DNA from: Candidatus Aldehydirespiratoraceae bacterium
Lineage (GTDB): Bacteria; Actinomycetota; Acidimicrobiia; Acidimicrobiales; Aldehydirespiratoraceae
Reading direction: 5' to 3'
DNA: 64,000 nt
Assembly (NCBI GenBank): GCA_965221585.1
Contig: OZ244898.1
Span: 810,527-874,526, forward strand
Below, in pieces: positions 3,007 to 63,189 of the stretch. A program made the translations under genes and the position numbers. The notes below the pieces were generated by a model that saw only the letters and a program-made list of their open reading frames with translations, did no database searches and was not told the origin of the DNA. Positions within the stretch are counted from its first letter, which is position 1; each line of letters starts with the position of its first letter.

Positions 3007-3837
3007 ATGGGCAGGATTCGCAATACGTTCGAGTTGGCGAAGCTCTCGTGGGGAGTTTTGAAGAAGGACCGGGAACTGTTGGTGATTCCGGTCTTGTCGT
3101 TCCTGGTTTCCGCGGCGTTGTTGATTCCGCTCATGTTCGTTGTGTTCGCAACGGCCAGCACCGAGTCGGGTGGCGCTGAAGAAGCTTCAGCCAACCCCGC
3201 GATGGTGCTGGTAGGGCTTGTGGCGGCACTGGGTCTGAGCGTGATCAGCGTCTTCTTCAACGGCGCTTTGGTCGCGGGGGCTCACGAACGGCTCGCGGGC
3301 GGCGACCCGACGGTTGGTTCTGCGATCCGCAAGGCATTCAGCCGGATCCCCGGTCTGGTTCCCTGGGCGATCCTGACCGCCACAGTTGGATTGATCCTGC
3401 GCGCGCTGCGCGACCGGGCGGGTATGTTCGGCCAGTTCGTGATCAGCATGGTAGGTATGGCCTGGGAGGTTGCGACGTTCTTGGTGGTCCCGGCGATCGT
3501 GATCGACGACAAGGGCGCGATCGACGGCTTGAAGACCTCGGGTTCTTTGCTCAAGTCGACCTGGGGTGAGAACCTGGCGGCCCGAGTCGGGTTCGGGATC
3601 CTCGGGTTCGTGGCGGTGCTGCCGGCCATTCTGTTGATGGCTGTGTTCGGTTCCCTCGGCGGGATCGGCCTGATCGTGGGTATCGCCATCGGCGTGGTCT
3701 GGATTGCGTTGGTGGTTGTGGTTATGACTGCGCTGAACGCGGTGTTCCAGGCGGCGCTGTACCTTTACGCAACATCGGGAATGGCCCCGAGCGGGTTCGA
3801 AGGCTCCACCATCGGCGAGAGCTTCAGCCGTCGCTGA
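3007..3837 (+). CDS. polytopic membrane protein of unknown function (DUF6159-like)
   Basis: Starts at the ATG at 3007 (MGRIRNTFELAKLSWGVLKKDRELL). Contains several long hydrophobic helices. Confidence 0.55.
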   Translation: MGRIRNTFELAKLSWGVLKKDRELLVIPVLSFLVSAALLIPLMFVVFATASTESGGAEEASANPAMVLVGLVAALGLSVISVFFNGALVAGAHERLAGGDPTVGSAIRKAFSRIPGLVPWAILTATVGLILRALRDRAGMFGQFVISMVGMAWEVATFLVVPAIVIDDKGAIDGLKTSGSLLKSTWGENLAARVGFGILGFVAVLPAILLMAVFGSLGGIGLIVGIAIGVVWIALVVVVMTALNAVFQAALYLYATSGMAPSGFEGSTIGESFSRR

Positions 3838-51249: not shown

Positions 51250-52557
51250 TCACAGTGACAGGGTCTTTGTTGGGCCGATCCGGCGTCGCCAAAGCATGCC
51301 GAAACCCATAGAGATGAGTACGAGGACGCCCATCAGCGACATCATCGGGCGGATTCCGTAGATGTCTGCCAGCTTCCCGAACGGAAGCGAAGCCAGTCCG
51401 AATCCGGTGAAACTCAACATGATCAGGCTCTGGACCCGTCCGTGGTATTCGACGTCGGCGATGGTCAACGCCAAAGAGTTGTTGAGCGCCTGGAACGCTG
51501 CGGAACTCCCGCCGACGACCACCATCACGACCACCGCCATCCAGTACTGCGGAGCGACGGCGAAGGCGACGAGCGAGACGCCGAAGACGACGGCGGCCTG
51601 GATCTGCAACGCCGGAAGCCGTGACTGCTTCGCACTGGCCAGTCCCACGCTGGCGATGACCGCTCCGGCTGCCCCTGCAGTCGTGAGCAGGCCGAGTGCC
51701 CAGGCGTCGAGTTCGAAAATGTCCTCCACCAAGCCGGGCAGGAAGGTGATGTGGGGAAACCCGAGCATCACAATCAGCAAAGAGATGACTAACAGCCTTG
51801 CCAACTCCCGATTCTGGCGAACATAGGCGAAACCGTCGATGAGATCGTCGAACGCTGAGAGGCGGGACCTGTACCGGGGAGCACCTGCTGGGAGTTTCAC
51901 GGTGGCGATGACCGAGAGGACTGAGAGCGTGGCACCCACGTAGTAGACGCCACCGACACCGATCACAGCGATGCCGATCAATATCCCTCCGATCGCAGGC
52001 CCCAGCACCCGTGTCATCTGAATGCTGGCGTTGCTCAGCAGGATGGCGTTGGTTAGGGAGTCGCGTTCGACGAGGTCAGCGGTCATCGCCAGCCGCGACG
52101 GCCCCAACAGCGACATGCCCAGTCCCTGGACGCCTCCTGCGACGACGAGCATCCAGTATTGGATGGCTCCCGTTGAGATGGCGATTGCGATTCCGAACGC
52201 TGCCGCGGTCATCGTCGACTGGGCGAAGATCAGGATGGAGCGTTTGCCTATCCGGTCGGCGAGCACCCCGGATGCAGGGATTGCCACCAGGCTGGTGACG
52301 CCGAACGCGAACACCACACCGCCCAAAGCGGCGTTGCTGCCGGTGAGTTCGTAGGCGAGCCAGCCCCGGGCGATCTGCTGGGTCTGCGAGGCGAGAAAGA
52401 TGAACATCCCGCCCCACCACAAGAACCGATATTCGGGGATCTGAAGCGATGCGAACCGTGCTGGCTTGGTTTCGGGTTCAACGGGTGGTGGAGGCGGTGG
52501 TTGTGTCTCGAAACGTGTTCTGTTCGCTTCTTCGTCGCCCGTGCCGAAGTCAGACAT
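51250..52557 (-). CDS. MFS transporter
   Basis: 12 predicted hydrophobic segments, with GVLADRIGKR in the loop 2-3 motif position. Confidence 0.8.
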   Translation of the reverse strand: MSDFGTGDEEANRTRFETQPPPPPPVEPETKPARFASLQIPEYRFLWWGGMFIFLASQTQQIARGWLAYELTGSNAALGGVVFAFGVTSLVAIPASGVLADRIGKRSILIFAQSTMTAAAFGIAIAISTGAIQYWMLVVAGGVQGLGMSLLGPSRLAMTADLVERDSLTNAILLSNASIQMTRVLGPAIGGILIGIAVIGVGGVYYVGATLSVLSVIATVKLPAGAPRYRSRLSAFDDLIDGFAYVRQNRELARLLVISLLIVMLGFPHITFLPGLVEDIFELDAWALGLLTTAGAAGAVIASVGLASAKQSRLPALQIQAAVVFGVSLVAFAVAPQYWMAVVVMVVVGGSSAAFQALNNSLALTIADVEYHGRVQSLIMLSFTGFGLASLPFGKLADIYGIRPMMSLMGVLVLISMGFGMLWRRRIGPTKTLSL

Positions 52558-52779
52558 CGTGGCGACCGTATCGCTTCAACTGACCGCTCTACACATCACC
52601 CAACCCGCTGCTTACGTCTTTTTGAGCCCATTGAGATGCTCCATTTGGCTCCCGTGCCGGCGATTCACGGTGGTTGTGCGAGTTGTTTCCCGGCGTGAGT
52701 TTTCGGGTCGCAGCGAGCGCGGGAGTAGCGTTTCGGGGCATACGCGTCGCCGCTAGCCGTGAGCGGCAAAGAGGCATCG

Positions 52780-54303
52780 ATGGGCACACCGGAGACAGAA
52801 ACAATAGAAACCGCCGCGGCAAGTGTGGGTGTCGGGCCGCGCGCCGGTCGGGATCTGAGAATCGCGATCATTGGGGCCGGTCCGGGTGGGTTGTGCGCGG
52901 CTATTCGGCTGCGTCAGTCCGGGTTCGAGAACTTCACGGTGTTCGAGAAGAGCTCTGGCGTGGGCGGAACCTGGTACCACAACCGCTACCCGGGTTGTGC
53001 CTGCGACATCCCGGCCGAGCTGTACTCGTTCTCCTTTGAGGTGAACACGGAGTGGAGCCGGCCCTTCGCCCGCCAACCCGAGATATTGCGCTACATGGAG
53101 CGCTGCGCCGAAAAATACGGTGTGCTCGAGCATTGCCGGTTCAACGAGGCGGTACGAGCCGCCCGCTGGGACGGAGAGGCTTCCTGTTGGTCCCTGAGCC
53201 TGGAGTCGGGAACTGAGGTGACGGCTGACGTTGTGATCAGCGCGCTGGGCATGTTCAACGACGTGCCGATGCCCGATATTGAAGGCCTGTCCTCCTTCGG
53301 GGGCACCGTGATCCACTCGGCTCGCTGGAACTGGGACCACGACCTGAGCGGCGAGACCGTGGGGATCATCGGTTCAGCGGCCAGCGCCGTGCAGATCGCC
53401 CCGGAGATCGCCGAAGAGGTGAGCCGGTTGCATGTGTTTCAGCGCACCGCGAACTGGGTGTTGCCGAAGGAAGACGACCCGTACACACCTACCGAGATCG
53501 CTGCCCGCCGGGCCGATCCCGGCATCGTGGTGGCGCGGCGCGAAGAGTTGTTCAACCAGGTGGACAAGGGTATGGCCTTCAAGAGTGCCAAGGTTCGGGC
53601 CGGTATGGAGGAGACGGGCCTTGCCGCGCTGGAGGCGGTTGCCGATCCCGAACTGCGGGCCAAGCTAACCCCCGATCATCCGTGGGGTTGCAAGCGGCCG
53701 CTGTTCCACAACGAGTACTACACCACCTTCAACCGGGCGAACGTGGAGTTGGTCACCGACCCTATTGAGCGGATCACACCGAAGGGCGTGCTCACCTCGG
53801 ACGGCACAGAGCGGGACTTGGAAACGTTGGTGCTGGCCACGGGGTTCTCCACCACCAAGTACCTGTCGGCCATCGAGGTGACGGGCCGTGATGGACTCAG
53901 CATCGCGGACGCCTGGAACGACGGCGCGACCGCCTACATGGGCGTCACCACCAGCGGTTTCCCGAACCTGTTCATGCTGTACGGCCCCAACACCAACAAC
54001 GGTTCGATCATCACCATGATCGAGTACCAGGTGGAGTACGTGGTTGCCCATATTCGGCGGATAGCGGCGCAGCGGCTGGCCTGGGTGGACGTGAGGGCCG
54101 AACCGATGGCCCGCTACAACGACTGGGTGCAGGACGGCATCGCCGGCGTTGAACCCTGGCACGGCGGTTGCAACGGCTACTACCGCACGCCCAACGGCCG
54201 AATCGTGACCCAATGGCCCCACAACATGACCACCTTCAAGACCCAGACCTCAACCATCGACGAGTCCGCCTACGAATCGGTCCCCTTGCCCAAATCGCCT
54301 TGA
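52780..54303 (+). CDS. Baeyer-Villiger type flavin monooxygenase
   Basis: IIGAGPGGL, BVMO fingerprint FGGTVIHSARW (FxGxxxHxxxW), second GSAASAVQ. Confidence 0.8.
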   Translation: MGTPETETIETAAASVGVGPRAGRDLRIAIIGAGPGGLCAAIRLRQSGFENFTVFEKSSGVGGTWYHNRYPGCACDIPAELYSFSFEVNTEWSRPFARQPEILRYMERCAEKYGVLEHCRFNEAVRAARWDGEASCWSLSLESGTEVTADVVISALGMFNDVPMPDIEGLSSFGGTVIHSARWNWDHDLSGETVGIIGSAASAVQIAPEIAEEVSRLHVFQRTANWVLPKEDDPYTPTEIAARRADPGIVVARREELFNQVDKGMAFKSAKVRAGMEETGLAALEAVADPELRAKLTPDHPWGCKRPLFHNEYYTTFNRANVELVTDPIERITPKGVLTSDGTERDLETLVLATGFSTTKYLSAIEVTGRDGLSIADAWNDGATAYMGVTTSGFPNLFMLYGPNTNNGSIITMIEYQVEYVVAHIRRIAAQRLAWVDVRAEPMARYNDWVQDGIAGVEPWHGGCNGYYRTPNGRIVTQWPHNMTTFKTQTSTIDESAYESVPLPKSP

Positions 54304-54458
54304 CGCAGAAACGTGCCTGGTGGCCGGATCTGGCGGAGAAACGAGACCCCTGTTGTTGGTGCGCAAACTCGGACGCAGCCTGAGCGCGTCACACCCTCCC
54401 CGTAACGTTGAGACTCACTGGATAGCCTTTGGCAACTCGGTGAGGGAGGGAAGTGGTC

Positions 54459-55208
54459 ATGGCTGACCGAACCGGTATCGAATGGACTGAGACAACCTGG
54501 AACCCGACGACCGGCTGCGATCAGACCTCACCGGGATGCGACAACTGTTACGCGCTCACGTTGGCGAAGCGGCTCAAGGCAATGGGCAACCCGAAGTACC
54601 AGAATGACGGTGACCCCAAGTCCAGCGGTCCTGGTTTCAGGTTGACGCTGCACGACGACGTGCTTGAACTTCCCTACCGTTGGAGAGCACCACGCATTGT
54701 TTTCGTGAACTCGATGAGTGACCTGTTCCATCCCGAGGTTCCGTTGGAGTTCATTCAGCGGGTCTTCAGGGTCATGGCTGAAACCCCTCAACACACGTAC
54801 CAAGTGCTCACGAAGCGGTCTAAGCGCTTGGCGTCGTTGGCCGGCAAGTTGGACTGGCCTTCCAACGTCTGGATGGGCGTTAGCGTCGAGTCGTCACGTT
54901 ACGCCTTTCGGATCGACCACCTCCGCTCCGTGAACGCTGCAGTGCGGTTCGTCAGCGCCGAACCCCTCCTGGGGCCGCTCCCCGAACTTGACCTCTCCGG
55001 GATCGGGTGGTTGATCGCCGGCGGTGAGAGCGGCCACGGAGCCCGGCCGATGAAAGAGGAATGGGCCCGCGACCTACGCGACCAATGTGTTGTTGAAGGT
55101 GTTGCCTTCTTCTTCAAACAATGGGGCGGCCGAACCCCCAAAGCCAACGGCCGCGAGCTGGACGGCAGCCTCTACGATGAGATGCCCCTCACCGAGATCG
55201 CTGTGTAG
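54459..55208 (+). CDS. DUF5131 (phage Gp37/Gp68) family three-Cys protein
   Basis: TGIEWTETTWNPTTGCDQTSPGCDNCYA (C-x5-C-x2-C), FVNSMSDLF and GGESGHGARPM...FFFKQWGG. Strong SD gagggaggg 9 nt upstream of the ATG at 54459. Confidence 0.75.
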   Translation: MADRTGIEWTETTWNPTTGCDQTSPGCDNCYALTLAKRLKAMGNPKYQNDGDPKSSGPGFRLTLHDDVLELPYRWRAPRIVFVNSMSDLFHPEVPLEFIQRVFRVMAETPQHTYQVLTKRSKRLASLAGKLDWPSNVWMGVSVESSRYAFRIDHLRSVNAAVRFVSAEPLLGPLPELDLSGIGWLIAGGESGHGARPMKEEWARDLRDQCVVEGVAFFFKQWGGRTPKANGRELDGSLYDEMPLTEIAV

Positions 55209-56182
55209 TGGTTCGCACGTGGGGATACTGGACAGTTGGCAAACTCGATATTTTGCGGGCGTATCTTGACGCTTTCACTACCGCCACCAAACACCGGGTG
55301 ACTGATCGGATCTACCTCGATCTCTTCGCTGGCGGATTGGACAACCGCGAGCGGATGACGGACGAACCGATCGAAAGCTCGGCACAGATCGCGGCATCGA
55401 TCGATGCACCAGAGTTCTCCGTATTGAGGTTCTTTGAGATTGAAGGCAAGGCTCAAAGGCTTGAGTCATCATTGTTGGAGTCATATCCGGGGCGAGACAT
55501 CAAGGTGTATGGAGGCGACTGTAACGAACTGGTTCCCAGGGCACTGGAAGAACTTAAAGCTAAGGCGTGGGCCCCAACGTTTGCTTTTGTGGACCCGAAC
55601 GGCATGGAAGCGGAGTGGCGCACCCTGGAGGCCCTCGCGAACTTCCGCCGAAATCAGAAGACGAAGGTTGAGTTGTTCCTCCTCTTTGCTGCGCCGCAGT
55701 TCATCCGGCTCCTACCAAAGGACGGCAGTGGGGTCAGGCCGGAAGATGAGAAGAAGATCGACTCACTGTTCGGGACTCATGACTGGTGGCACATCTATAC
55801 CGCCCGTCTCGCGAATGAAATCGAACCTGGTGAGGCGCGCGACGAGTACTTGAATCTCATGCGGTGGCGTATCGAGCAGGTACTCGGATATGAGTGGACG
55901 CATCCACTCGCGATCCATAACGTCGACGGTGCTGAGATCTACTCAATGATCTTCGTGACAGATCACCAAGCGGGAACAAGTATCATGAGCGGGATCTATG
56001 CGAGCGCAGCGGCAAAGTTCCCAGCCATGCGCGAAAACGCGAGACGTATGCGGAATCGGGCTCGCGAGGCTGAACTTGGCGTGATGAGCCTCTTCGACGA
56101 AGACGAATCACTCGGAGGCCCGCCAAAACTTGGTGAACAATTCTACGAACACGAACCTCCGGCGCGACCGTGGTTTCTTTAG
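55208..56182 (+). CDS. three-Cys-motif partner protein (TcmP-like)
   Basis: The GTG start overlaps the DUF5131 stop. The N-terminus W..GKLDILRAYLDAFTTATK...IYLDLFAGG and the position directly after a Gp37/Gp68 gene fit the TcmP family as I remember it. Confidence 0.55.
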   Translation: MVRTWGYWTVGKLDILRAYLDAFTTATKHRVTDRIYLDLFAGGLDNRERMTDEPIESSAQIAASIDAPEFSVLRFFEIEGKAQRLESSLLESYPGRDIKVYGGDCNELVPRALEELKAKAWAPTFAFVDPNGMEAEWRTLEALANFRRNQKTKVELFLLFAAPQFIRLLPKDGSGVRPEDEKKIDSLFGTHDWWHIYTARLANEIEPGEARDEYLNLMRWRIEQVLGYEWTHPLAIHNVDGAEIYSMIFVTDHQAGTSIMSGIYASAAAKFPAMRENARRMRNRAREAELGVMSLFDEDESLGGPPKLGEQFYEHEPPARPWFL

Positions 56183-56237
56183 GGGACCTAACGTCGCTGT
56201 GGCCCGCTTGCCTGGCCCATGAGGGAGGGGACCGCGC

Positions 56238-56825
56238 GTGCAGGAAGACGTACTTGAGCAGATCGTTGATGACTATCTGCAGCACCTTGGTTACTTCACA
56301 CAGCACAACATCAGGTTCCGCCCCCGACATGATCACCCGGACTACGACTCGCAGCAGGATTCAGTCCGCTCCGATGTGGATGTCGTCGGGATCAATCCAC
56401 AGAAGCGGGGGTTGGATCGCGTGATGGTGGTGAGTTGTAAGTCTTGGCAGTCAGGGTTCGACGCGACCAGTCGACTCGCTCAGATGAAGGGCGAGAAGAA
56501 GAACCCCAAACGGGAGACTTGGCGGCATCACCGTGAGTTGTGGGTCCCGAAATGGAGCGAGGCGTTCCGAGCCGCGATCAAGGACTGCACCGGTAGGGGA
56601 GCGTTCAGTTACCGCATTGCCGTGACTCGACTCAGGGGAGAAACCTCAGATTGGGGTCGTGATTCGAACATCGCGGAGAACTTGCCGGGTTGTTCAATCG
56701 GATTTCTCACGCTCGAAGAGATGTGGCGGGATTTGGTCGCTGGTCTTGGCACTACACCCGCTAGTAGCGAGATTGGTCGTTTGGCGCAACTGTTGAAAGC
56801 CGCTGGTCTAGCGGGAAATGAGTAG
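56238..56825 (+). CDS. hypothetical protein, possible PD-(D/E)xK-fold nuclease
   Basis: Strong SD gagggagggg upstream of the GTG at 56238. SDVDVVGI...RVMVVSCKSW could be a degenerate D...(D/E/S)xK core. The fold call is speculative. Confidence 0.4.
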   Translation: MQEDVLEQIVDDYLQHLGYFTQHNIRFRPRHDHPDYDSQQDSVRSDVDVVGINPQKRGLDRVMVVSCKSWQSGFDATSRLAQMKGEKKNPKRETWRHHRELWVPKWSEAFRAAIKDCTGRGAFSYRIAVTRLRGETSDWGRDSNIAENLPGCSIGFLTLEEMWRDLVAGLGTTPASSEIGRLAQLLKAAGLAGNE

Positions 56826-57444
56826 TGATATGCGCATTATTGTCTTTGGAGCGACCGGAAAAACTGGTGTGAAGACTTGGCGCAAGGCGCTGCAGCAAGG
56901 GCATCAGGTAACAGCTTTCGGCCGTTCGGTGGACCGGCTCTCCGAGGCTGCGCCCGAATTGCACACCTTCAAGGGCGACGTCTTGGATTTGAGTGACGTC
57001 ACCGAAGCCGTAGCTGGCCACGACGCGGTCATCGTTTGTATCGGAAGTACCAACCTGAAAGACACGACGACGCTGTCTTCAGGCACCAAGAACATCGTTG
57101 ATGCCATGGTTCAACACGAGATCGAACGCCTCGTCGTCATCTCCACTGCTGGGGTCGGCGAGAGTTGGAAGCAGATTTCGCTGATGGCTCGCGTCCTGTT
57201 CAGAACCTTGCTCCGCAACGTCTTCGCCGACCATCAGGCGCAAGAAGCGATCGTTCGCCAAAGTGCGTTGGATTGGACCATCGTTCGCGCGGCTGTGCTC
57301 AACGATCGTCCCGCAACCGGATACGCGGCAAGCAACAGCAGTCCAGCGAAGCGGATCAGCCGCGAAGACCTTGCAGACTTCCTTGTCGACCAGGTGAGCG
57401 ACTCCGCATACAGTCGCCGAGCGATCTCCGTGGCAAGTTCCTGA
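56818..57444 (+). CDS. NAD(P)H-binding atypical SDR (NmrA / flavin-reductase-like)
   Basis: IIVFGATGKTG Rossmann motif. About 208 aa. Confidence 0.75.
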   Translation: MSSDMRIIVFGATGKTGVKTWRKALQQGHQVTAFGRSVDRLSEAAPELHTFKGDVLDLSDVTEAVAGHDAVIVCIGSTNLKDTTTLSSGTKNIVDAMVQHEIERLVVISTAGVGESWKQISLMARVLFRTLLRNVFADHQAQEAIVRQSALDWTIVRAAVLNDRPATGYAASNSSPAKRISREDLADFLVDQVSDSAYSRRAISVASS

Positions 57445-57513
57445 CCTCGGATCCCGCCCATTTGACCAACGGCGGTTTGGTGTTGGGGGGCTGTGGTGGG
57501 GCACCATCGGGGG

Positions 57514-58617
57514 ATGGAATTTGCGATGTTTTACGAGATCCCGGTTGCTCGGCCCTGGACACCGGGCAAGGAGCATCAGGCGTACAAGGACGTGGTCGAG
57601 CAGGTGAAGCTCGGGGACCGGCTCGGGTTCCACTCGGTGTGGACGGTCGAGCACCACTTCCTCGAGGAGTTCTCACACTGCTCCAACCCGGAGGTCCTGT
57701 ACGGCCATCTCGCTGCGGTCACCAACAACATCCGGCTCGGCTACGGCGTGCGACTCATGCCCCAGCCATACAACCACCCGATTCGCACCGCCGAATCAGT
57801 GGCGGTGCTCGACCTGCTCTCCAACGGGCGGGTCGAGTTCGGCACCGGCCGGTCGGCTACCCGTGCCGAACTCGAGGGTTTCGGGATACACCCCAACGAC
57901 ACCCGATCGATGTGGCAGGAAGCGCTCACCATGACGCTCGGTGCCATGACCAACGACGAGTTCAGCTTCGACGGCGAGTACTGGCAGATGCCCACGCGCC
58001 GTGTGTTGCCCAAGCCGCTGCAAGACCCGCATCCGCCGGTTTGGGCGGCGACCAGTTCCGACGGTGGACACCGACTCATGGGCGAGCTCGGCCTCGGGCT
58101 CCTGTCCTTCTCAGTGGGTACACCGCCTGAGGAGCTCGGCCGTCGGATCGGGATCTACCGGGAGGGAATCGAGGCCTGCACCGAACCGGTCGGCAGGTTC
58201 ATCAACAACCGTGCTGCGAGTTTCACGATGGTGAACGTCGCCGAGACGAACCAGCAGGCGGTCGAGCAAGCGGGGCCCTCTTTCGAGTGGTACCCCAAGC
58301 ACGGCGCGCACCTCATCGGCTCGGTGGCTCAGTGGCTGCGCCAGATGGAAGAGGAGCTCGGCACCTACGACTATCTCGGGTCGACCGCGGACCATGTCGA
58401 GGACGGTTCGATCGAACACCTCACCATGGACTACCTGCTCGACACCAACGCCTGCGTTTGCGGGGACCCGGACCGGGCCATCGAGATGTTCCGTGCCTAC
58501 GAGGCCACCGGCTGCGACGTGGTGTTCTGCCTCTTCAACCCCTACGACGTCGCCCACAAGGATGTCATGCAGACCATCGAGCTGATGGGTGAACACGTCA
58601 TCCCCGCGTTCAAGTAG
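57514..58617 (+). CDS. LLM-class (luciferase-like) flavin-dependent oxidoreductase
   Basis: MEFAMFYEIP..., LGFHSVWTVEHHF and GRVEFGTGRS. Confidence 0.85.
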   Translation: MEFAMFYEIPVARPWTPGKEHQAYKDVVEQVKLGDRLGFHSVWTVEHHFLEEFSHCSNPEVLYGHLAAVTNNIRLGYGVRLMPQPYNHPIRTAESVAVLDLLSNGRVEFGTGRSATRAELEGFGIHPNDTRSMWQEALTMTLGAMTNDEFSFDGEYWQMPTRRVLPKPLQDPHPPVWAATSSDGGHRLMGELGLGLLSFSVGTPPEELGRRIGIYREGIEACTEPVGRFINNRAASFTMVNVAETNQQAVEQAGPSFEWYPKHGAHLIGSVAQWLRQMEEELGTYDYLGSTADHVEDGSIEHLTMDYLLDTNACVCGDPDRAIEMFRAYEATGCDVVFCLFNPYDVAHKDVMQTIELMGEHVIPAFK

Positions 58618-61210: not shown

Positions 61211-62101
61211 TCACAGGGGGCGTAGGCGTGACATAAGTGCTGCCTCAAAGTCATCTCGACTGATAGTTTCGGCTGCTCGTAGACGCTTGCTGGAATCTTC
61301 AAGAGTGAGCACTTCCCAGTGATCACGTACCAGACGGAGACCGTTGTTGGTTGTGCGCTCTAGATGTGTGACCAACCAGATGATGTCGCCTTCGTTTATG
61401 TCGTGGCACGGTTCGTCACTTGCACCGCCGATGGCATCAAAGAAAGGGCGGTCTACTCCCACGGCCAACTTGGCGCCCCATCTGCGGATTGTCGGAGCCT
61501 TGATCTCAAGTTGAGGCATCAGCCGTTTGGCGCTAGATGATCGCCAGTCGGGACGTCGGATCGCGGAAGGGAAGGGAGGGGATTCGTTGTGGTCGTTCAG
61601 TAAGGCTTCGAATTCACTGTTCATTCCGGTTCCAGAAAAATAGACCGCTTGGATCTCTAGTCCGTGCCAGCTGAGACGCTCTCCCTGCACATGGGCGACA
61701 ATCATGTCGATTTTCCCTGCAGGCTTGTCTGTTTCTGTGCTCCTCATGAACGGGACTTCTCTCGCCACTTGACACTCGTGGATAGGAAAGCCTGCGACTT
61801 CAGCGAGCCATTTGTTGACGAGGCTCTTTTCTTCGAAACGATTTGGACAAGTAATGACGGACTCACCGATGGGATCGCCGAGGTGATCGTCTGCTTTTTC
61901 TGTGTACCGTTGGATAGAGCAAACACCTCCCTTCTTTGAGCATGGTGGTTTGTTCGCTTGGAACGGACAGGGAGGAAGCTGGTCGTCTGACTGGCCTAAA
62001 GCATGTCCCGCGTAGATTCTTCGTCGCGGTGCTGTCAGTGACGTGAAGGACTGCCCGTACCACTCTGCAATCCCGTATCGCGTCTTGGTTTTGTCAGACA
62101 T
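61211..62101 (-). CDS. NotI-family type II restriction endonuclease
   Basis: Cys4 cluster PPCPF...CSKKGGVCSIQRY...VITCPNRF and LEIQAVYFSGTG resemble the NotI Fe-Cys4 region and its EIQTMDFHGS motif as I recall them. It lies 14 nt downstream of a DNA methyltransferase gene. Confidence 0.65.
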   Translation of the reverse strand: MSDKTKTRYGIAEWYGQSFTSLTAPRRRIYAGHALGQSDDQLPPCPFQANKPPCSKKGGVCSIQRYTEKADDHLGDPIGESVITCPNRFEEKSLVNKWLAEVAGFPIHECQVAREVPFMRSTETDKPAGKIDMIVAHVQGERLSWHGLEIQAVYFSGTGMNSEFEALLNDHNESPPFPSAIRRPDWRSSSAKRLMPQLEIKAPTIRRWGAKLAVGVDRPFFDAIGGASDEPCHDINEGDIIWLVTHLERTTNNGLRLVRDHWEVLTLEDSSKRLRAAETISRDDFEAALMSRLRPL

Positions 62102-62115
62102 AACTCAGAAATGGG

Positions 62116-63189
62116 TCAATCGAAGACCGCGTGGCGTGTGATCACAAGTTCGGATATTCGAGCGTGGTGAGTGTTCTTCATTACAACTTCGACGGCGTGA
62201 AATCCGTATTCGTCAATCAGTTCTGCGATCTCGGAAGACCGGTCGTAAGTCATTAGGAAGTCCATTGAGGTCGCGGCCAGGATCTTGAAGAGATGACGGT
62301 GGTCGATTTGGTGGTGGGCGTAGAGCCGATTACCAGCACGTTTACCGCCAACGGTGTATGGCGGGTCGATGAAGGCGACAGTGCCCGGGACATCGGCGAC
62401 CACCTCTAGCAGTTCTAGCCCGTCGGTTTCACAGAAGGTGATCTGTGGCGCATGAGCTTCGATGTTCTGCAGACGCTTGATGATGGTGTCGGGGTACCAC
62501 CGCGACGAGAGTCCTTTGTTGTTCTCTCCAGACTTTGTCAAGGCGGCCCCTGGGGCCAAGATACCGCCGCGTCGAGTCCGGTTCAGTACCAGAGTTCGGA
62601 ATCCGTGCGCCAGCAAGTCCCGGTTGGGTCCGTTGGCTAGGGCAGAGACGGCTTCACGTGTGGGCTGGAACTCCGAGACGAGACGACATAAGTCGGAGTT
62701 GTGGCGCAGCGCCGCGTGCCAGAAGGCAGCAACATCGTGATCGAGTTCGGCCATGATGCTTCTTTCGACTAGGTCTTCGCACACCGCTGTGAGAGCTACG
62801 GTCCCGCCACCGCTGAAAGGCTCAATGAGAACTTTGGGTCTAGGTTGGATTGAAGCAAGCCAGGCTCGAATGTGTGGAATCAACCAAGTCTTACCACCTG
62901 GGTAACGCAACGGTGAGCGTTGAGGCACCGAAGCCACGTTCACCGCGGGGATTGACGAGACAGAAAAATCGGGACCGTAGTCGGGCGAATGGGATCCCGT
63001 TGTCGATTGTCGATCGGTCATCGCGGAACCCGCTGTCTGCGAAGCATCTCCAATCCCTGCATCGCCGACAAGCATGCCACGGCCGCGATCCCCGATGGTG
63101 GAGCCACGACGAGGGTGCCCGGTAGCTTCGCGAGGCGGAGGGATCAACTCAGGAATCTGCATCTGTTCGATTCTCGGCTTCTGCTCCAT
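62116..63189 (-). CDS. D12-class (Dam-like) N6-adenine DNA methyltransferase
   Basis: SPLRYPGGKTWL near the N-terminus of the core and FIDPPY catalytic motif. The ORF has a low-complexity leader of about 95 aa, so the true start may be the ATG at 63021 or later. Confidence 0.8.
   Translation of the reverse strand: MEQKPRIEQMQIPELIPPPREATGHPRRGSTIGDRGRGMLVGDAGIGDASQTAGSAMTDRQSTTGSHSPDYGPDFSVSSIPAVNVASVPQRSPLRYPGGKTWLIPHIRAWLASIQPRPKVLIEPFSGGGTVALTAVCEDLVERSIMAELDHDVAAFWHAALRHNSDLCRLVSEFQPTREAVSALANGPNRDLLAHGFRTLVLNRTRRGGILAPGAALTKSGENNKGLSSRWYPDTIIKRLQNIEAHAPQITFCETDGLELLEVVADVPGTVAFIDPPYTVGGKRAGNRLYAHHQIDHRHLFKILAATSMDFLMTYDRSSEIAELIDEYGFHAVEVVMKNTHHARISELVITRHAVFD

Follow-up and report, generated by a model that had tools for sequence, protein, structure and literature searches.

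The DNA analysed here, a 64-kb window of contig OZ244898.1 from a Candidatus Aldehydirespiratoraceae bacterium, carries three co-directional genes on its + strand that a first-pass annotation had proposed to form a single candidate defence or DNA-modification system. The genes are designated g1, g2, and g3, and with the gene that follows, g4, they succeed one another on the + strand between positions 54459 and 57444 of the window. g1 (54459–55208) encodes a 249-residue member of the DUF5131, or "phage Gp37/Gp68," family; g2 (55208–56182) encodes a 324-residue TcmP, or three-Cys-motif partner protein; and g3 (56238–56825) encodes a 195-residue stand-alone PD-(D/E)xK-like (Mrr/NERD-like) protein of an unnamed family. 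Inspection of the open reading frames (ORFs) confirmed the tight packing that had been described: the TAG stop codon of g1 (55206–55208) and the GTG start codon of g2 have one base in common (TAGTG), and 55 nt separate g2 from g3.

A Shine-Dalgarno-like box, TGAGGGAGGG, is present at 54441–54450 on the + strand, 8 nt upstream of the g1 ATG at 54459; the ORF list gives a GTG at 54453 as the start of this gene. A second copy (56220–56229, + strand) precedes the GTG start codon of g3 by the same 8 nt. These are the only two exact occurrences of the 10-mer in the window, in keeping with the earlier description of strong and near-identical boxes. When one mismatch was allowed, three occurrences were counted against 5.6 expected, which is not above chance. 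No sigma-70-type promoter was matched between the genes, and terminator-like sites between them were found only at the level of shuffled sequence.

The distribution of the three genes in other genomes was surveyed from both directions. A scan of metagenome and viral contigs yielded 83 TcmP loci, 42 of which included at least 800 nt on each side. A DUF5131 gene was adjacent to TcmP in all 42, and on the same strand in 39, so that DUF5131 and TcmP constitute an obligate pair. This agrees with the assignment of g2 to a family named as the neighbour of g1, to which its match is strong (TIGR04474, E = 5.4e-48, 164.2 bits against a cut-off of 53). A g3 homologue, by contrast, was present at none of the 83 TcmP loci, 57 of which extend 700 nt or more beyond TcmP on its downstream side, and the census revealed no recurrent third gene of any kind beside the pair, its neighbours being heterogeneous. 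In the reciprocal survey, one genome per species was scanned, a relative of g3 was found in 246 genomes, and the best 80 of these were analysed (47–97% identity; Actinomycetota, Acidobacteriota, Pseudomonadota, Planctomycetota, and others). Sequence of g1 or g2 lay within 10 kb of g3 in 4 of the 80 species genomes and was absent from this interval in the other 76. The four are metagenome-assembled genomes (MAGs) labelled Candidatus Aldehydirespiratoraceae or Acidimicrobiales, the lineage of the window itself. No recurrent partner gene of g3 was found, the largest neighbour clusters covering at most 12 of 81 loci and representing one shared mobile element or lineage synteny (for example SufBD in Solirubrobacterales). 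Co-occurrence beyond chance, on which the first-pass annotation had staked its three-gene proposal, was therefore found not to extend from g1-g2 to g3.

Five sister genomes (L004–L008) were compared with the window at this locus, giving six related genomes in all. In L008, g1, g2, and g3 are all intact and in the same order. In L004, g2 is interrupted ∼90 nt into the gene by 4.1 kb of inserted DNA that encodes IS256-type and IS481-type transposases, and in L005 both g1 and g2 have been lost, with an IS481-type element directly adjoining window position 56116. The g2 ORF has been cut out almost exactly from L006 (55211–56180), leaving g1 beside g3, and L007 has internal deletions in g1 (54454–55161) and g2 (55251–55953). 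g3 is intact in all five sisters, with amino acid identities of 94–97% in four and 83% in L008. The ratio of nonsynonymous to synonymous substitution rates (dN/dS) for g3 is 0.08–0.18 across all pairs and 0.105 for L005 against L007, neither of which has a working pair. Where they are intact, g1 and g2 are likewise under purifying selection, with dN/dS values of 0.11 and 0.16, respectively, between the window and L008. The region bounded by the MFS transporter gene and the luciferase-like monooxygenase gene (52557–57493) is hypervariable throughout across the six related genomes, and g3 is its most stable element.

Additional rearrangements were observed at the sister loci. The last 66 nt of g2 mark the point at which homology restarts after the IS481-type elements in both L004 and L005. 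In addition, positions 3728–3988 of L004, upstream of g1, hold a second copy (95% identical) of window positions 56745–57005, which comprise the 3′-end of g3 and the 5′-end of the NmrA-like gene g4. This duplicate encodes a truncated NmrA-like ORF and is evidence of local rearrangement.

These data bear directly on the model of the first-pass annotation, in which g1 and g2 modify DNA and g3 cuts either unmodified or modified DNA, the three acting as one restriction-like module in this lineage. The adjacency, shared direction, and close spacing of the genes, the identical boxes before g1 and g3, the conservation of gene order in L008, and the compatibility of the predicted fold classes with such a module are all in accord with it. 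However, a g3 nuclease dependent on protection by g1-g2 could not survive their loss, and g3 is retained intact, with dN/dS of ∼0.1, in genomes where g1, g2, or both have been destroyed, so a modification-protected restriction model fails. Given also that g3 occurs without g1-g2 in 76 of 80 genomes and that the pair occurs without g3 at 83 of 83 loci, a three-gene unit is largely refuted by census and is now very unlikely. It is instead highly probable that the locus consists of two independent accessory modules, g1-g2 and g3, which abut only in one Acidimicrobiales family, the closest relatives being MAGs labelled Candidatus Aldehydirespiratoraceae.

The g1 protein matches the DUF5131 profile over essentially its full length (PF07505, E = 2.8e-101, 338.5 bits against a gathering threshold of 28.9, profile positions 2–243 of 243) and also matches PADLOC model PDC-M41B (E = 2.2e-111) and phrog_2045 (E = 6.5e-95). 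Its cysteine cluster had been described as C-x5-C-x2-C, but the actual spacing is C20-x6-C27-x2-C30 (CDQTSPGCDNC). In an alignment of 68 homologues, this triad is kept in at least 93%, and a Tyr residue following the triad, a G188-G189-E190-S191 (GGES) motif, and a fourth cysteine, C210, are each kept in at least 90%. A near-N-terminal three-Cys cluster followed by an aromatic residue, together with a GGE motif, is shared with the radical S-adenosylmethionine (SAM) superfamily, in which the canonical spacing is C-x3-C-x2-C. The cluster had been called reminiscent of but distinct from the radical-SAM CxxxCxxC; the relation is closer than this, in that DUF5131 is already classed as a subgroup of the superfamily, RadicalSAM.org Megacluster-5-2, in a megacluster that also holds spore photoproduct lyase (5-3) (PMC9477430). 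This listing and the sequence motifs support the prediction that g1 is an iron-sulfur (FeS)/radical-SAM-type protein. TIGR04471, "radical SAM mobile pair protein A," resembles g1 in being carried on mobile elements as part of a gene pair, but the match of g1 to this model is partial and far under the cut-off (74 bits against 355). Single-sequence and profile searches detected no relative of known structure for g1, g2, or g3.

In addition to TIGR04474, g2 matches PADLOC model PDC-M41A (E = 2.4e-25), whereas it matches no Pfam family, methyltransferase models included. Structure models were produced for g2 and g3 with AlphaFold2 and compared by Foldseek with the Protein Data Bank (PDB) and, for g3, also with BFVD. 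The g2 model (mean predicted local distance difference test score (pLDDT) 86.3) has a Rossmann-like seven-strand arrangement typical of the class I SAM-methyltransferase fold and was matched with a probability of 0.99–1.0 to at least 26 methyltransferase chains at E ≤ 1e-3. PDB matches at a probability of 1.0 include TYW4, LCMT1, DnrK, and KsgA. No variation was seen at D38/F40/G42, E77, G103/N106, or D129, and conservation reaches at least 90% at D104, P130, and N131; these residues fall at the positions of methyltransferase motifs I–IV. g2 has in common with class I SAM-dependent methyltransferases a DxFxG motif I, an acidic residue ending β2, and D-P-x-x after β4. It differs in its motif IV, FAFVDPNG (DPNG) as opposed to the canonical (D/N/S)PP(Y/F), and in that template modelling (TM) scores to TYW4, LCMT1/PPM1, DnrK, and KsgA are only 0.3–0.4, with identities of 8–16%. 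The earlier description of g2 as methyltransferase-like is borne out by the model, and a class I SAM-methyltransferase fold is supported as its predicted fold.

The C terminus of g2 has a further conserved feature. A linker at residues 301–310, modelled with low confidence (pLDDT <50), is followed by the peptide FYEHEPPxxPxF (residues 300–324 region, window ∼56105–56179), in which Y313, P318, and P321 are invariant and which is modelled with high confidence. This peptide could be a docking motif.

No match above threshold was obtained for g3 in Pfam, NCBIfam, PADLOC, or PHROGs. The closest profiles were NERD (PF08378, 18.3 bits against a gathering threshold of 22.1) and Mrr_cat (PF04471, 14.1 bits against 21), both below threshold, and sub-threshold matches to Mrr_cat and NERD were obtained with 16 and 12, respectively, of 60 family members. 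The structure model of g3 is well predicted (pLDDT 90.6) and shows an α-β-β-β core (helix 3–16; strands 20–27, 45–52, and 62–68). Almost all of its named fold matches are PD-(D/E)xK nucleases, among them Can2, EcoT38I, MspJI, McrC, TnsA, Mus81, and phage "restriction endonucleases," at TM-scores of 0.3–0.44. The possible nuclease core noted previously therefore stands, on fold matches that are weak but consistent. E7 on helix α1, D46 and D48 on β2, and K68 and Q71 on the β3 side are invariant. Every aligned member has S, T, or N at position 66, and β3 of g3 itself reads S-C-K.

Comparison with Mrr/NERD-type PD-(D/E)xK domains is instructive. Like g3, these have an α-β-β-β-α core with an invariant Asp that starts β2 and an invariant Lys in β3, and they are often found beside restriction-modification (R-M) genes and recombinases. 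g3 differs in that its Pfam matches lie below gathering thresholds (best E = 2.7e-4), in its S-x-K motif, and in that it is a stand-alone protein of 195–220 residues with a conserved C-terminal helical part. In a search of 1.84 billion representatives at E ≤ 1e-3, the family comprised 522 representative clusters at 50% identity, almost all of which are stand-alone proteins of 190–230 residues. No informative domain fusion was found in the longer members, which gave one GerE (LuxR-type helix-turn-helix) match, weak ankyrin and β-flower matches, and no other domain. Together, the profile and model comparisons support the description of g3 as a well-predicted yet divergent PD-(D/E)xK-like protein of an unnamed family.

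The S-x-K motif raises the possibility that g3 is not a nuclease but a catalytically dead protein of the PD-(D/E)xK fold with a DNA-binding or regulatory function in mobile elements. Replacement of the middle acidic residue of (D/E)xK by S, T, or N in every aligned member would be expected of such a protein, and g3 is, at ∼50% identity across phyla, unusually conserved for a defence effector; the conserved C-terminal helical region is in line with the same view. On the other hand, E7, D46, D48, K68, and Q71 are invariant on α1, β2, and β3 of the model, and the weak profile matches are to catalytic domains, Mrr_cat and NERD. In other PD-(D/E)xK families, the metal site can be completed by an acidic residue that another part of the fold supplies, and E7 on helix α1 could be such a replacement for the missing acidic residue. 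A catalytically dead g3 is held to be rather improbable, and a nuclease or nucleic acid-binding effector is preferred.

Elsewhere, g3 travels alone, often beside recombinases and R-M genes. At locus L003, a tyrosine integrase gene is followed by a g3 homologue and then by genes for a 1302-residue Eco57I-type methylase and a PLD-helicase, and a g3 homologue also follows a tyrosine integrase gene on the Cupriavidus plasmid pMOL30. A segment with AbiEi/AbiEii-like genes, a g3 homologue, and a large serine recombinase gene is 93–99% identical at the DNA level across several phyla, being found in isolates of Luteimonas, Methylococcus, and Thermithiobacillus and in MAGs assigned to Thiobacillus, Hyphomonas, Acidobacteriota, Verrucomicrobiota, and Ectothiorhodospiraceae (loci L065, L068, L072, L074–L077, L079, and L081; ∼7600–13300 in L077 coordinates). 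Either this segment is an integrative element of broad host range or, in some of the MAGs, it reflects a binning artefact. Among 42 loci, genes within two positions of g3 included type I restriction and methylase genes, type IV restriction genes, MADS, PbeA, and SoFic. Several Solirubrobacterales MAGs (L027, L029, L035, L036, and L038) have sufB-sufD, which encode FeS-cluster assembly proteins, immediately upstream of the g3 homologue; this adjacency is probably lineage synteny and not a functional link.

The g1 and g2 genes are adjacent and match both components of PADLOC system PDC-M41 and are thus arranged as in that system (related: PDC-M30; Payne et al., bioRxiv 10.1101/2024.01.29.577857). 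The PDC systems number 145; their authors, who call these "phage defence candidates" untested, obtained them from genes lying inside BREX, DISARM, and type I R-M loci (10.1101/2024.01.29.577857). PDC-M41 is a two-gene candidate without a nuclease, g3 matches no PADLOC model, and the window adds nothing to the definition of the system. The proposal of a candidate defence system is consequently upheld for the pair, for which a defence role, already catalogued as a candidate, is plausible, but not for g3, which is no part of that system. Among the papers searched, none gave a function for DUF5131, TcmP, PDC-M41, or PDC-M30, in agreement with the earlier statement that none of the three genes has an experimentally assigned function.

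The pair rides on plasmids, prophage lysogeny modules, and defence-type islands. On the Nocardioides plasmid pNOCA01, genes for an N6-methylase, an McrB-like ATPase, and McrC are followed by the DUF5131/TcmP pair. In the Gordonia phages PantheRoc (genes 40–41) and Fairfaxidum (genes 42–43), a DUF5131 gene and a TcmP-family gene sit between the integrase and the immunity repressor genes, the two being convergent and TcmP having the same orientation as the repressor. Fairfaxidum gene 43, annotated as a "methyltransferase" (398 residues), is a divergent TcmP. Convergent DUF5131 and TcmP genes with overlapping 3′-ends were observed in PantheRoc, Fairfaxidum, Synechococcus phage Ssp-JY39, and pNOCA01; in the chromosomal and metagenome loci sampled, most pairs (39 of 42) run in one direction, the stop codon of one gene being coupled to the start codon of the other. 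In Sinorhizobium meliloti, the TcmP gene SMa2243 is up-regulated along with the Hna defence gene SMa2245 and is the next entry in the expression table (PMC12445080). On metagenome contigs, most neighbours of the pair are housekeeping genes, and defence or mobility genes are a minority, made up of type I methylases, AriA-like ATPases, genes of MADS, integrases, and resolvases.

DUF5131 is carried by 180 phage and 433 plasmid records, and in TChen, RR1-A, PhiCh1, and prophiGD43A-5 it is found alone among early or DNA-metabolism genes. In such early regions, phage self-modification or counter-defence fits as well as defence. The pair could perform a self-serving function for a phage or mobile element, such as hypermodification of DNA or RNA for anti-restriction or replication-linked nucleotide chemistry, and would in the window be the remnant of an old insertion in the course of being lost. 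The occurrence of DUF5131 alone in lytic-type phage genomes, where early, replication, and DNA-modification genes surround it, and its abundance in phage and plasmid records are consistent with this explanation, as are the repeated loss or disruption of g1-g2 in four of five sisters and a third-codon-position G+C (GC3) of g2 below that of the backbone. It sits less well with the purifying selection on g1 and g2 where these are intact (dN/dS 0.11–0.16, window against L008) and with the temperate Gordonia phages, in which TcmP is co-oriented with the immunity repressor. In actinobacteriophage genomes, defence genes expressed by the lysogen are usually found at the immunity repressor and in the same orientation. 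Moreover, the pair was originally picked up embedded in known defence loci. A self-serving function is for these reasons considered unlikely, though it is a serious competitor.

The observations described above can be explained by the following minimal model, in which g1-g2 and g3 form two separate modules. Module A is the translationally coupled g1-g2 pair, a member of PDC-M41. The g1 protein would bind a [4Fe-4S] cluster on its Cys triad and cleave SAM reductively to a 5′-deoxyadenosyl radical, which would attack a nucleic acid or nucleotide substrate. TcmP would bind SAM and the same substrate and would either methylate the substrate or present it. The resulting modification would serve in conflicts between mobile elements and their hosts, most probably in anti-phage defence, with self-modification of a mobile element as the serious rival. 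Module B is g3, which has its own ribosome-binding site and would act independently of g1-g2 as a single-protein metal-dependent nuclease or nucleic acid-binding effector.

As a whole, the combination of two modules with a pair chemistry and role of this type is the best overall explanation, to which a probability of ∼0.65 is assigned. The particular chemistry and defence role stated for the pair are more tentative and fall somewhat short of an even chance. Several observations weigh against the model. Among the papers searched, no experiment on g1, g2, or g3 was found, and the PDC authors themselves describe their systems as untested. DUF5131 alone in phage early regions and the mostly housekeeping neighbours of the pair on metagenome contigs, where defence and mobility genes are a minority, do not favour a defence role. 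For g3, β3 reads S-C-K and not (D/E)-x-K, and every fold match has a low TM-score. Finally, in the lineage of the window the three genes are direct neighbours with an identical box in common, such that local co-expression is possible.

The surroundings of the genes in the window were also characterized. The cassette is flanked upstream by a flavin-containing/Baeyer-Villiger monooxygenase-like gene (52759–54303) and downstream by g4 (56830–57444, + strand), which encodes an NAD(P)H-binding NmrA-like protein (PF13460, NAD_binding_10, E = 7.6e-47), in agreement with the unrelated redox genes previously noted on both sides. Each of the five sisters either lacks the upstream gene or has an internal deletion in it. 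g4 begins 4 nt past the g3 stop codon, and an alternative ATG at 56818 would give an 8-nt overlap with g3. Consideration of g4 as a fourth component led to its rejection, given that L008 lacks g4 (window 56826–57514 is missing) and that g4 does not recur beside g3 in other genomes; g4 is lineage-specific cargo.

The segment had also been described as AT-richer than its surroundings. The G+C content is indeed 0.55–0.59 over 54.3–57.3 kb against 0.62–0.66 for the backbone, but the low-G+C tract is not confined to the three genes and extends past g3 through g4. GC3 values are 0.64–0.67 for g2, g3, and g4 (0.67 for g4) and 0.75 for g1, compared with 0.73–0.85 for backbone genes. No terminal direct or inverted repeats bounding an inserted cassette were found, the locus having only short repeats at chance level. 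A type II R-M-like gene pair is present on the − strand at 61211–63189, 4.4 kb downstream of g3, in which a gene for a NotI-like restriction endonuclease (PF12183, 61211–62101) adjoins one for a D12-class N6-adenine DNA methyltransferase (62116–63189). The G+C content of this region is only 0.52–0.54, and the region is absent from sister loci L006 and L008.

The question of what DUF5131 and TcmP do together had already been posed by PDC-M41, of which the present locus is one further instance, and what is added here is mostly negative, namely that g3 is not to be annotated as a third component of the pair. The window gives intact copies of both the pair and g3, and among the sister genomes there are natural knock-outs of g1-g2. 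Hundreds of phage and plasmid records contain DUF5131, a large radical-SAM subgroup whose chemistry with TcmP could reveal a new nucleic acid modification or defence mechanism. More speculatively, and with the odds against it, the pair may install an undescribed radical-SAM-dependent modification of nucleic acids or nucleotides for phage-host conflict, and the g3 family may, separately, be a new single-gene nuclease effector on broad-host-range integrative elements. The g3 family is separate, strongly conserved, and unnamed, appears to move between phyla on integrative elements, and deserves a test of its own.

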